Shown here: positions 13,369-49,307 of the stretch, piece after piece
Numbering within the stretch: position 1 is the first letter of the stretch
How the letters are laid out: each line of letters opens with the position of its first letter
From: a virus
Length of the DNA stretch: 64,000 bases
Direction: 5' to 3' (one strand)
Virus record (IMG/VR): IMGVR_UViG_3300050499_000294
Location: 98 to 64,097 of that record
Notes under the pieces: generated by a model
What the model was told of the DNA's origin: nothing
What the model saw: only the letters and a program-made list of their open reading frames with translations
The model's database searches: none
Position numbers and translations under genes: made by a program

Positions 13369-16300
13369 TTAGCGCAGCGCCTGTAACGTCCGCGCAATGC
13401 GCGAACCTGACCCTTGACTGATTTCATTAAGAACTTCGTTGATAATCACCGCTTTCCCTAACGCGCGTTCCCGTGACGCCTCTTGCGCGGCCTGTTCCCG
13501 ATTGGCCACGTTGATCACGGTGACGCCCCCCATGGCTTGCCCCCCGGCCGTGGGTGCTGCGCGCATGGCGCCACTCATAAGCGCTTGCATTTGCGGCCGA
13601 TTGAGCACGTACTCGGGATTCATCGCGGGATTTTCGCCGGCGAGGATGGCCGTGGGGCGGTTGACAATCGCGCCGCCCTGGGCCTGCTGAAAAAACGTGG
13701 TCCCCGGCGCAATCCCGAGGGCAGCCTGGTTCCCGGCAGCGGTGCCAGTCGCTCCAGCCGCTCCAGGCGCGAACGCCGCGCCAATCGCCGTAATGCCCAG
13801 CCGTATGAGCATGCGGAAGCCCTCGTTCAGCGCAATCTGGGCCACCGAGTCGAGGATGCTCTTGGCCATGAGCCGGAAGGCATCGCTCACACGTTCCGTC
13901 CCGTCAATAATGCTGAGGAGCCCCTGCGTGATGGTCTGCGCGGCAGTATCGCCAATCCGCTCGGTGATCTGCATAATGTCGTTAAAGCGTTCTTGCGCGG
14001 TAATCGCGCGCAGCCGTGCTTCGTCGTCGGGGGTCAACTCCACCCCTTGCCGCCGCGCTTGTGCCCGGAGGCGGAGTTCGGCTCGCTCCTCGCGCGGTGC
14101 CCGGAGCCGTTCCAGTTGCGCCTCAATGCTCTGCGTCATCGCGTCGGAGGCCGCTTGCGCCTCGCGCTGCGCATCGGTACGGGCCTTGATCGCCGCAAAA
14201 CTGCTCTCCATCGCTTGTTTTTCTTCAATGAGCAGCCGGACATTTTCCGCCCGTGTCTGGATTTCCGCATCCTGGGGAAACTGCGCTGCCAGGCGCGCCG
14301 CCTCGCCTTCCTTGCGGGCATCCGCCGTGAGCGAATATTGCCGCTCCAAGCTCTTCAGGCTCTCCACGGCCTGAAAGCGCTTCTGCACTTCCTCCTCAAG
14401 GGCGCGAATATATTCCCGGCCCGTCGCCATGACCTGTTGGCGCCGTTCCCGCGCGTCGACGTCGCGCTGCCGCTCTTCCTCCTCAATGGCCTGGAGGTAT
14501 TCGCGGCCCGTCGCCCTGGTTTGCGCCAGCCGCTCGGTGTCAGGGGTTTGCGCTTCTTGCCCCGCGGCCAGGGCGCGTTGCTGGCGGCCAGCGGCATCGA
14601 GCATGCCCTGGATGGTCTGCGGGACACGCCGCAAAACATCCTGCGCAAAGGTCGCGTTTTCGCCGGTAGGAAGCGGGATGCCCCCGCGCGCCGGTCCCGC
14701 ATTGTAAGCAGTGAGCGCCCGCTCGACATTGCCATTGAACTTCTGGAGGAGTTCCGCAAAATAACTCATGCCCGCCCGGAGATTGGCTTCGGGCTCAAAC
14801 TCCCGGCCCCCGGCGCCATACGCGGCGGCCGTCCCCGGCATGAGTTGCATGAGGCCCTTGGCGCCCGCACGGGAGACAGCCTGCGGATTAAAGCCGGATT
14901 CCTGCTCGATTAAGGCGCGCATCAGGTTCGGATCGAGGCCTTTTTCGCCGGCAATCCGCTCAATCAGGGCATCAAGGGAGTTGGGCGCGCCACTCGGCGT
15001 AATCGTCCGGCGCAACCCTTCGCCCAGCTTGCCGATTTCTTCCTGCACGGCCTTGAGGGTCTTTTCCCAGGCTTTGAATTTCTGGTCTGCAATGTCGAGC
15101 GCGGAGAGAAAGGGCGCATTCAGCTCAATATCACGGATTTGCTGGCGCCCTTGGTCCAGGATTTTCGCTATGCGCTCTTCCGCCGCTTGCAGCGGCCGTT
15201 CGTCCGCCGCAATCTCAAACTTAAAGCCGACTTGCCCCCCCGGCCCAAAGCCTTCCGCTTGCAGCTTCTGTTGAAACTCGGCCATTGCCTTGCGCTGTTC
15301 GGCATCAACGGCTTGCAGCTTATCCCGAATGGCCCGCCGCTCCTCCGTCGTAAGCGGTCCCGCAAAGCCGGGGAGCATGCTCTCGACCAATTGCGAGGCC
15401 TGGGCGCCCGTAATCTGCGCCTGCAAGCGCTCCAACTCGGCCTGACGTTCCCGAATCGCGGGCGGGAAGCCCACACCGCCTCGCGGCAGAGCACCCACCG
15501 GGGGACCCGCTTCCCGACTACGTTCTTCCTGGACTTTACGCAAGGTAGCCAGCAGCGTCGTGGCAGCCTCGGCCAGGCTCCGGAGCGTGTCCAGGAGCCC
15601 GGAGGCCGCGATGGTTTCCCCAGCCAGCTTGATCTCGTTGCTCAGGCGCTGAAATGCGGCGGCGGCGGTATCGGTCGCGGTCGCCACGGCCCCGCCGAAC
15701 TCCATGCGAAAGCGCTCACTGAAGCGCCGGACGAACTCAATACTGTCCGTCCCCTTCTCGATCATCTTATTCAGTTCTTGCGTCGTCACCCCAAAGGCCC
15801 GCGCCGCAATCTGCGTGGCCCCAGGAATCGCTTCCGCCAGCTGTTGGCGTAATTCCTCTTGCGACACGATGCCTTTGGAGACCATCTGCTGGAGGGCGAG
15901 GAGCCCGCGCTCGGTCTGCTGCGAGCTTGCTCCCATGGCCCGCATGCCCACTACCATGTTTTCAAAGATGCGGGCGGCCTGCTCGCCCTGAATGGACGTG
16001 CCACGGGTCGCGGCGTCAAAGCGCCGGAAGTTTTCGGCGAGCGGGATGACTTCGATCCCCAACCGCTGCGCCAGGTTGATCATCTGCTGGAAGGCCGCAG
16101 CGCCGGCGCTCACGCCCTGGATGGCCGTAAATTGCTGGCGTAACTGTTGGAATTGCACGCCGACCGCGACGATACTCGTCGCCAACTCTTTCATCTGACT
16201 GATGATGGCGCCAATACTGGTGGCAATCCCGATGCCCCCGGCCACACTGAGCGCCGTACTCAGGGCCGCGCCCAGCCGTCCCGCATTCTGCGCCGCGTCT

Positions 16301-48147: not shown

Positions 48148-48363
48148 TTACGCCTCCGTCAAACCAAGCAGATAATCGGTACTCACCTTGAGTGCCGACG
48201 CCAAGCGCACAAAGCGCGGCAGATTCGGCATCGCTGTCCCACGCTCATACTTACTAATATCCGTCTTAAAGACCTGCGCCTTTCCAGCAAGGGCTTCCTG
48301 GCTCAGATCGGCCCGCCGCCGCGCCAGTAACAGGCGCTCCTGAAAGATATGCAATCGCTCCAT
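48148..48363 (-). CDS. XRE-family HTH repressor/Cro-like protein
   Basis: LSQEALAGKAQVFKTDISKYERG...LASALKVSTDYLLG. Confidence 0.9.
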   Translation of the reverse strand: MERLHIFQERLLLARRRADLSQEALAGKAQVFKTDISKYERGTAMPNLPRFVRLASALKVSTDYLLGLTEA

Positions 48364-48381
48364 GTCGTACCTCCTGTATCA

Positions 48382-48410
48382 AGAATACCAAAAAGTGAAA
48401 TTATTTTCAA
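48382..48410 (-). promoter_or_regulatory. Sigma70-type promoter for the XRE gene
   Basis: TTGAAA-17 nt-TATTCT on the minus strand. Confidence 0.65.
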
Positions 48411-48438
48411 GTTTTAATTCTTTGTTGCTCTTTTCTGC

Positions 48439-48467
48439 TTGCCAATGTAAGCGAAGTCAGCTATACT
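48439..48467 (+). promoter_or_regulatory. Sigma70-type promoter of the early operon
   Basis: TTGCCA-17 nt-TATACT, back-to-back with the repressor promoter. Confidence 0.7.
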
Positions 48468-48665
48468 AGTAATCAGTTGGTTGGTTGATTGACAAGGCGA
48501 TGGGCGCTACAGAGTTGAGTACCTCATGTGTGCCGGCACTTAAGAAACCGGGGAGGGAAAGACAGAGCCAGGGCGAGAACGGGAACAGACCCCCGGAAGG
48601 CTACTGAAGACAAACGCCCCACCAGGAGAGCATTGAACGCGACGATCCTGGCGACGAGAGACAAC

Positions 48666-48715
48666 GGTGTCTGAGGCTGTGGGCCTCACTGACGAGTTGG
48701 AAACAACGAAACACC
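48666..48715 (+). ncRNA. Hammerhead ribozyme (type III)
   Basis: GGTG-TC^, stem I TGAGGC/GCCTCA, core CTGACGA, stem II GTTG-GAAA-CAAC, GAAA, stem III CACC; predicted cleavage after C48671. Confidence 0.9.
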
Positions 48716-48730
48716 AAGGAGAATGAGACG

Positions 48731-48940
48731 ATGACCACCACAACCCTCGACACCACCATTGCCCGCATCCTGACGGCCCTCGACAACGATTCAACGACCT
48801 GTATGGCCGTGCTGGAGGAGGTCCAGGCCTACCGCTGGGCGCATCCGTCTGATGGTGTGGCGGACGCGATCACCGACGCCGTGCGCACCTGGCATGCCGC
48901 GTATGCACGCCGGATGCAGGAATGGTGGAGGCAGGTGTGA
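48731..48940 (+). CDS. Small hypothetical early protein between the two ribozymes
   Basis: RBS AAGGAG; 69 aa. Confidence 0.7.
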   Translation: MTTTTLDTTIARILTALDNDSTTCMAVLEEVQAYRWAHPSDGVADAITDAVRTWHAAYARRMQEWWRQV

Positions 48941-49000
48941 GACGACCCCGGAAAACGACCAGACGACCCACGGTAACGCCTGTGTATGTCCCTGAATAAC

Positions 49001-49066
49001 GCAGAGTGCGCCAGCCCCACGCTGGCGGAATGCGGCCCCGCACGGTGCGGGACGGTCACAAGCCCG
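49001..49066 (+). ncRNA. Twister ribozyme (P5-type permutation)
   Basis: GCA-GAGTG-P1(CGCCAGC/GCTGGCG)-G^AA-TGC-GGCC-P3-CGG-TCACAAGC-CCG; CAC/GTG pseudoknot complementary; predicted cleavage 49028/49029. Confidence 0.85.
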
Positions 49067-49088
49067 AACAACCAAGGAGACACGAACC

Positions 49089-49283
49089 ATGATTCACGTA
49101 AACACGCGCCAGTACGAAGTCTGCCACGGCCACACGCCCCGGCAACCCCGCGGCGCACCGACGGCTTTGTGGGCCATCCAGATCGATGACGATCCGGCCC
49201 CGCGCTATCTCCGCATGCACCTCCGGGACGCGATCGCCCAAGCCAAAGCCTGGGCGACGACCTCCATCACCATTCTCCCCTAA
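49089..49283 (+). CDS. Small hypothetical early protein
   Basis: RBS AAGGAG directly after the twister. Confidence 0.65.
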   Translation: MIHVNTRQYEVCHGHTPRQPRGAPTALWAIQIDDDPAPRYLRMHLRDAIAQAKAWATTSITILP

Positions 49284-49307
49284 CCGCACCACCAAGGAGA
49301 CACGACC

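Follow-up and report, generated by a model that had tools for sequence, protein, structure and literature searches.

The window analysed here, 64,000 nucleotides (nt) of viral DNA corresponding to positions 98 to 64,097 of the 64.4-kb IMG/VR provirus record IMGVR_UViG_3300050499_000294, contains a complete type III hammerhead ribozyme. The element is 50 nt long, carries every invariant core nucleotide and occupies positions 48666-48715 of the plus strand. The AAGGAG ribosome-binding site (RBS) of the first rightward gene begins at the very next base, 48716, as the initial annotation, made from the sequence alone, had reported. Its description of a complete hammerhead abutting the first RBS is supported by the sequence, by covariance models and by comparative evidence. 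Assignment to type III is likewise supported by every structural feature of the sequence that we tested, the Rfam score cut-off being the only item on which the element falls short. We consider it about 60% probable that this is a catalytically competent hammerhead in the 5′ untranslated region (UTR) of a presumed early operon of an uncultivated rhizosphere phage or prophage, that its cleavage would detach a conserved leader and stabilise or insulate the mRNA behind it, and that a twister ribozyme further downstream would make a second cut.

A complete type III hammerhead ribozyme

The 50 bases run in hammerhead order, GGUGUC / UGAGGC-UGUGG-GCCUCA / CUGACGA / GUUG-GAAA-CAAC / GAA / ACACC, and the core, the three stems, the GUC triplet and the UGUGG and GAAA loops all lie where the initial annotation had placed them. 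Stem III pairs GGUGU (48666-70) with ACACC (48711-15) over five base pairs (bp), including the A15.1-U16.1 pair formed by A48711 and U48670. The cleavage triplet consists of G48669, U48670 and C48671, the last of which is C17 (H17), and the predicted cut falls between 48671 and 48672. Stem I, UGAGGC(U)/(G)GCCUCA at 48672-88, has six Watson-Crick pairs and one U.G pair and carries loop 1, UGUGG, while stem II, GUUG/CAAC, has four pairs closed by a GAAA loop (48696-707). The core strand CUGACGA (C3-U4-G5-A6-C7-G8-A9) lies at 48689-95 and G12-A13-A14 at 48708-10. The invariant core of Rfam family RF00008 is thus present in full, and its positions are consensus-aligned both by RF00008 and by a phage-derived model, R1, described below. 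Stems I and II are capped by loops and both the 5′ and the 3′ end lie in stem III, which is the connectivity of type III.

The Rfam family Hammerhead_3 (RF00008, clan CL00010) matches 48664-48717 end to end with a score of 43.1 bits, at an E value of 6.9e-8 in 1 kb and of 4.4e-6 for the whole window. The scan covered the entire 64-kb window on both strands with 4227 families, and only two matches were seen at E<=0.05: this hammerhead and a twister 285 nt downstream on the same strand. The RF00008 alignment departs from the family at two places: loop 2, where four positions are gapped, and stem III, whose outermost two positions are unpaired.

An independent model was built from phage hammerheads gathered with a pattern that fixed the core and stem II/GAAA and left stem I, stem III and the GUH site free. 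The pattern gave 65 distinct matches, about 40 of them full type III hammerheads. Thirty-two unrelated phage type III hammerheads, with the window sequence left out, align in 52 columns, and pairing in their three helices reaches 98.8%, with 162 double-change cells; none of 500 shuffles reaches the observed level, and slid controls are 31-41% paired. The covariance model made from these sequences (R1) scores 48666-48715 at 61.8 bits with an E value of about 1e-16 and has no second match in the window. Placement relative to genes is also a property of the class. In 24 of the 32 independent hammerheads, an ATG that opens an open reading frame (ORF) of 60 or more codons is found 8-35 nt past the motif, compared with 10.7% at random positions on the same strands. 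The spacing of 15 nt in the window is at the short end of the class range and unexceptional.

In the alignment of 32 sequences, a U-GUGU-G loop 1 and a GAAA loop 2 are features of the class, and both are shared by L041 (366 nt) and L081 (322 nt), which we take to be plant-virus satellite RNAs. The loops of the window copy are the same except for one missing U in loop 1. A T inserted after 48681 in one rhizosphere contig (metagenome run X3) changes this loop from UGUGG to the consensus UGUGUG. This insertion is the sole variant within the hammerhead across four metagenomes, where the motif has zero substitutions and the leader more than 25 variable sites. The fast cleavage of natural type III hammerheads at cellular Mg2+ is owed to contacts between the loops (PMC6155905).

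Position-equivalent copies with compensatory changes

Hammerheads occupy the equivalent position in related phages. In L108, the conserved leader is followed by a canonical type III hammerhead and then by an RBS and an ATG 16 nt past the motif. This copy consists of GGUGUC, stem I CGUGAC/GUCACG with loop UGUGUG, CUGAUGA, a stem II (GUCC/GGAC) capped by a loop of 10 nt, and GAAACACC; Rfam gives it 42.3 bits and R1 59.7 bits. A more distant copy lies at L110:1501-1574(-). The record to which it belongs, G005, is a complete phage of 53.8 kb that has terminal repeats, and its terminase shows 69% identity. Here a promoter is followed by a leader of some 200 nt, after which come a type III hammerhead, AGGGAGG and GTG as the start codon; the hammerhead scores 31.6 bits and has a long branched insertion in stem II and a different loop 1. 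The orthologous hammerhead at L101:687-738 (the same as in L107) scores 38.7 bits and keeps stems I and III intact with a UGUGUG loop. Its core has decayed to CUGAAUAAC, with A in place of G8 and the 10.1-11.1 pair broken, and by its sequence it is probably an inactive relic.

The four position-equivalent hammerheads (window, L108, L110 and L101) were used as a covariation set. Across them, 95.3% of cells pair and 8 of the 16 pairs have changed on both sides. None of 500 shuffles reaches this figure, and slid controls are 31-49% paired. The element is therefore conserved in position with compensatory changes in its stems.

Proposed role in the operon

The hammerhead lies about 200 nt into the predicted transcript, which starts near 48474, at the end of a non-coding leader. 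The scan that gave the sigma-70-like promoter of Table 1 found 3 sites where 0.5 were expected, and each of the related loci, read by sequence, has similar -35 and -10 elements, equally far upstream of its conserved leader. The rightward operon is presumed to be early from its position opposite a divergent helix-turn-helix (HTH) regulator gene. Downstream of the hammerhead, the 10-mer ACCAAGGAGA has only three sites in the window, 48713, 49071 and 49291, one before each of the first three rightward genes. At these sites, where the element reads ACCAAGGAG(A), the first copy directly follows the hammerhead, the second comes 3 nt after the twister and leads into gene 2, and the third has no ribozyme ahead of it. 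The first ORF (48731-48940, 69 codons) is thus flanked by two plus-strand ribozymes, the hammerhead on its 5′ side and the type-P5 twister on its 3′ side.

Based on this arrangement, we infer the cleavage itself, the promoter with its transcript start and a stabilising or insulating consequence for the message. Transcription would start near 48474, and the 50-nt motif would fold once made and cut itself co-transcriptionally between C48671 and U48672. Hammerheads cut 3′ of C17 and leave a 2′,3′-cyclic phosphate on the upstream piece and a 5′-hydroxyl (5′-OH) on the downstream piece. The 5′ product would accordingly comprise the conserved leader, about 198 nt ending in GGUGUC with a cyclic phosphate, and the 3′ product would be an mRNA that opens with a 5′-OH and the hairpins of stems I and II, followed by ACACC-AAGGAG and the start codon. 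Of the motif, only six nucleotides would remain on the leader, and the hairpins, the core and the ACACC strand would become the 5′ end of the mRNA. Because nearly the whole of a type III ribozyme stays downstream of its cut, the message would gain a structured 5′-OH end. Such an end would be a poor entry point for 5′-end-dependent RNases, and translation and decay of the first cistron would be uncoupled from the long leader. A second cut by the twister would give the 69-codon ORF as a separate RNA of about 357 nt.

Several observations weigh against this proposal. The Rfam gathering cut-off, an annotation threshold rather than a structural feature, is 48.5 bits, so that the Rfam scan suggested as a check in the initial annotation recovered the expected family at a low E value and left it under the family's own threshold. 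Loop 1 lacks one nucleotide of the class consensus. By nearest-neighbour energies, the hammerhead fold lies 5.3 kcal/mol above the minimum free energy (MFE) structure of the full-length leader transcript; in 100-nt contexts, too, the MFE structure is a different one, and stem III has a competitor in a local hairpin, AGACA/UGUCU (48659-72). The element also appears dispensable in evolution, as it is absent from L005, has a decayed core in L101/L107 and is replaced in L086-L088. Finally, the stabilising effect of a 5′-OH end depends on the RNases of the host.

The isolated 50-mer has exactly the three-way junction as its MFE structure (-16.6 kcal/mol), with a z score of only -1.76. The thermodynamics are not counted against the ribozyme, because the energies omit tertiary contacts and co-transcriptional folding; we judge the energy gap to be uninformative for a ribozyme stabilised by tertiary contacts, yet retain it as a caveat. 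As regards the score, a practical point follows. At gathering thresholds Rfam reports only the twister in this window, and since the hammerhead scores under its cut-off, default Rfam annotation overlooks it.

A further idea, that cleavage unmasks the RBS, was rejected. The computed probability that AAGGAG is unpaired changes from 0.59 in the full-length leader transcript to 0.40 in the 3′ product, and in L108 from 0.61 to 0.67, so that a gain is not consistent across loci. A sequence resembling an anti-Shine-Dalgarno, UCCUGG (48646-51), pairs with the RBS in the 100-nt fold and with CCAGGA (48622-27) in the full leader.

The conserved leader

The hammerhead may instead act mainly to make the 3′ end of the leader, in which case an RNA of about 198 nt would act on its own as a non-coding RNA and the processing of the mRNA would be a by-product. 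Once released, the leader could have a regulatory role, serve as a decoy, or bind RNA polymerase or another protein. We regard this as unlikely. In its favour, no other part of the region is as well conserved as the leader. It is found in six distinct loci with unrelated downstream genes, and its homology (about 48478-48664) extends from the predicted transcript start to within a few bases of the hammerhead. In alignments A2 and A6, some 55 nt around GCCGGCACUU..GAAACCGGGGAGGGAA form an invariant core and a hairpin at 48580-83/48592-95 covaries; within this hairpin, population variants at 48580/81 and 48594/95 in metagenome contigs are compensatory. UGACAA occurs near the 5′ end of every leader copy. 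Outside this core the picture is less uniform, as lineages differ from one another in the 3′ half of the leader. No Rfam family matches the leader.

What follows the leader bears on both possibilities. In relatives it is always a hammerhead or another structured element and never an RBS directly, as would be expected if the slot served the leader; in L101/L107, however, the leader is retained beside a hammerhead whose core has decayed. In addition, hammerheads of the general phage class track gene starts and not conserved upstream RNAs. In rhizosphere metagenome contigs aligned to 48400-49200, the depth of the leader is 4-10 times that of its flanks, the leader being common to several co-occurring phage variants, and these variants diverge just before the hammerhead. 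An independent function of the leader is, moreover, compatible with processing of the operon mRNA by the hammerhead, and the two do not exclude each other.

States of the hammerhead slot in relatives

The slot behind the leader differs between close relatives, and this patchiness speaks for another reading, that of a mobile module: an active or recently active ribozyme carried between phages in mosaic intergenic cassettes as neutral or selfish cargo, under little or no selection for a function at this site and heading to decay. The closest relative, L005 (terminase 96% identical), has no hammerhead and keeps the twister almost base for base in an early region otherwise unrelated to that of the window. 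The hammerhead has a decayed core in L101/L107 and is replaced in L086-L088. These absences have to be set against the occurrence of the hammerhead at the same position in three lineages, with terminases down to 69% identity and stems that are fully re-paired. The core of the window copy is perfect, the motif has zero substitutions across four metagenomes compared with many in the leader, and the class as a whole follows a strong positional rule relative to start codons. We consider passive cargo an improbable explanation of the hammerhead and continue to favour a ribozyme that processes the mRNA of the presumed early operon.

The twister itself is also found in L087. Its copy at L005:2862-2928(-) is nearly identical to window positions 49000-49067 while the surrounding early-region DNA is unrelated, a comparison of sequences which suggests that the type-P5 twister may travel as a small mosaic module.

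An alternative element in the hammerhead slot

In L086, L087 and L088, as in the metagenome duplicates of these loci, the slot holds a structured element of 68 nt (Table 1). It starts with GGUGUA and ends with ACACC-AAGGAGA, so that ACACCAAGGAGA, as at the start elements of the window, terminates it, and it shares with the hammerhead the outer stem GGUGU/ACACC and the UGAG/CUCA pairs. Its interior consists of two hairpins with an AUAAAC junction and is without CUGANGA, stem II or GAAA. The element is identical in the three loci outside its first hairpin, whereas their leaders differ at about 1 site in 7 (overall identity in A2 is 72%) and the genes behind them are unrelated. The first hairpin of the L087 copy nearly matches the reverse complement of its L086 counterpart. 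In the L087 locus, the element and a twister (13920-13989) bracket the first ORF, as the hammerhead and twister do in the window; in L086, it directly precedes a homologue of window gene 2, which is the place of the twister in the window.

Searches for this element elsewhere returned little. Rfam has no match to it at E<=10, and a model of the element (R2) found only the already-known copies in 0.9 Mb of phage loci. A second word search for it in viral contigs gave one chance match only, and exact words of both the leader and the element are absent from 185,579 species genomes.

The element may have been rebuilt from a hammerhead and persist as a relic, may be a processing site that depends on a protein, or may be a ribozyme not yet described, and the last of these we would call a long shot. 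Similarly doubtful is the broader notion that the slot is a swappable site of RNA cleavage, in which the 68-nt element replaces the hammerhead either as an undescribed self-cleaving ribozyme or as a dedicated processing signal. Linked to this notion is the possibility that the slot elements produce the 3′ end of a new phage non-coding RNA, namely the leader of about 190 nt. Pistol, hatchet and twister-sister ribozymes were found through ribozyme slots of this kind, which makes the element a cheap candidate for self-cleavage. It and the leader are the only unusual leads at the locus. A small lineage that carries different slot states behind the same leader and before the same RBS element is a natural experiment on the role of cleavage in the mRNA, and both the comparison of slots and the element itself merit a test at the bench.

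Comparison with known systems

By its structure, the window element resembles type III hammerheads borne by phages and by sobemovirus satellite RNAs (sLTSV type), with which it has an identical core (CUGANGA, GAAA, A15.1-U16.1 and a GUC site). The capped stems I and II and open stem III are the architecture of the 32 phage examples and of L041/L081, and stem I of 6 bp plus U.G with a GUGU-type loop and stem II of 4 bp with GAAA are also the same. The window element differs in that its loop 1 has GUG instead of GUGU (the population variant has the full loop) and that its score is 5 bits under the Rfam cut-off. The satellite hammerheads belong to rolling-circle RNA replicons, whereas the window copy lies in the transcript of a double-stranded DNA phage.

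The closest published arrangement is that of clustered hammerheads in prophages, which flank single genes or short blocks, as in the triple arrangement at ardA of Agrobacterium tumefaciens (Perreault et al. 2011, PMC3088659). These hammerheads cleave in vitro and in E. coli, and the role proposed for them is to cut a long transcript into gene-length mRNAs (PMC3088659). The window likewise has coding-strand ribozymes that bracket a small gene of variable identity in a phage operon. It differs in that the pair is mixed, a hammerhead and a twister, and in that the hammerhead comes first after a long conserved leader and touches the RBS. The hammerhead is a clean further example of the phage arrangement published in 2011, and not a new kind of element; it adds one more well-supported case of self-cleaving ribozymes before phage genes.

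Twister and hammerhead ribozymes share gene neighbourhoods in bacteria and phages, according to the summary of Roth et al. 2014 given in PMC6765202, a review whose conclusion is that what counts is cleavage and not the particular motif. The window shows no essential difference from this co-occurrence, as the same two unrelated self-cleaving classes sit in equivalent intergenic slots. To it the window adds a case within one lineage, in which the slot holds a hammerhead, a decayed hammerhead, another structured element or nothing. The remark in the initial annotation that hammerheads in phage intergenic regions mostly lack an assigned function agrees with both PMC3088659 and PMC6765202.

The working principle of the proposal, though not family membership, is also that of RiboJ, of which the window element would be the natural counterpart: with a type III hammerhead set between the promoter and the RBS, the 5′ UTR upstream of it is cut away, and the body of the ribozyme remains as the new 5′ end of the mRNA. 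Synthetic ribozyme insulators of the RiboJ type were reportedly introduced by Lou et al. in 2012. A hammerhead placed before an RBS in this manner normalises the 5′ UTR, and uncleaved mRNA decays faster than cleaved mRNA (PMC7536230). RiboJ is engineered and has a 23-nt hairpin between ribozyme and RBS, whereas in the window the RBS follows stem III without a spacer.

Same-strand ribozymes that bracket one ORF together with its RBS would also permit circularisation, with the hammerhead and twister excising a 357-nt ORF RNA whose ends are joined by an RtcB-type ligase or by reversal of a ribozyme. Although the end chemistry of both ribozymes fits ligation, nothing brings the two ends together, and in L108 and L110 the hammerhead stands before the first gene with no downstream ribozyme detected within the DNA examined. 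Circular or spliced products were raised as a possibility for the clustered prophage hammerheads, where they were sought and none was found (PMC3088659), and we consider such a product very unlikely here. That the motif is a chance look-alike whose RNA would not cleave is effectively excluded by statistics and covariation, since its sub-threshold Rfam score and weak local thermodynamics (z = -1.76) are outweighed by E values of 4e-6 (Rfam) and about 1e-16 (independent model), an entirely canonical core, orthologous copies with compensatory changes and an adjacent second ribozyme.

Features of the locus

Table 1. Features at the hammerhead locus of the window and related features in other phage loci
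Feature	Position	Strand	Basis or remark
Gene for a 71-amino-acid HTH regulator (Cro/CI-type)	48148..48363	-	Pfam HTH_19/HTH_3, E about 1e-11
Sigma-70-like promoter, TTGCCA-17-TATACT	48439..48467	+	Promoter scan, 10/12 matches
Non-coding leader, about 190 nt	48474..48665	+	Conserved in related phages; without periodicity of GC content at third codon positions (GC3)
Type III hammerhead ribozyme	48666-48715	+	Sequence, covariance models, orthologous copies with compensatory changes
Shine-Dalgarno AAGGAG, within element ACCAAGGAGA	48716..48721	+	Sequence
First rightward ORF, 69 codons, ATG at 48731	48731..48940	+	ORF list, in-frame GC3 about 0.8
Type-P5 twister ribozyme	49000..49067	+	RF02684, 44.9 bits, above the gathering score of 37.6
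Gene 2, rightward	49089-49283	+	Follows the twister and the second ACCAAGGAGA
Leader copies	L086:5905-6096, L087:13440-13633, L088:2413-2606, L101:501-686		Conserved
Leader copy	L108:9403-9588	-	Conserved
68-nt structured element in the hammerhead slot	L088:2606-2675, L087:13633-13702, L086:6096-6165		Also in L102-L106

The phage context of the locus is given by terminase, portal-like and HTH regulator genes and by the provirus record itself, and the stretch is present in several rhizosphere metagenomes, in every case as DNA contigs, with no RNA data set listed among its sources. On the minus strand to the left lie a large terminase gene, a small-terminase-like gene and others. The divergent HTH regulator gene, whose product also matches PHROG families of transcriptional regulators or repressors, marks a switch region, and an AT-rich gap with divergent promoter-like sites separates it from the rightward operon. 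The product of the first rightward ORF has no match in Pfam or PHROG and no relative was found for it in viral contigs. A megablast search of 48300-49300 against GenBank phages gave no match.

A mini-ORF of 13 codons, running from TTG at 48633 to UGA at 48672-74, was rejected as a coding sequence on account of its poor Shine-Dalgarno spacing and its lack of conservation in L087/L088. Its stop codon starts exactly at the hammerhead cut site, which is probably a coincidence.

L088:3160-3260 and L108:8960-9060(-) share a conserved segment of some 90 nt, around GCCCGGCCAGCUGCCACGCUCAAGCCGGACGCC, which precedes a later operon gene. It has some likeness to the CAAGCC loop of the twister, yet matches no Rfam family at E<=10.

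Among the other phage hammerheads of the same class, several of marine type (L036:4246-4296, L051, L076 and others) come directly after an apparent tRNA 3′ end (GGTTCAAACCC...), and many more are preceded by a conserved hairpin, gtgtcttcaaagacac. The tRNA-like 3′ ends and this hairpin are recurrent upstream partners of the class, and unlike the leader of the window.

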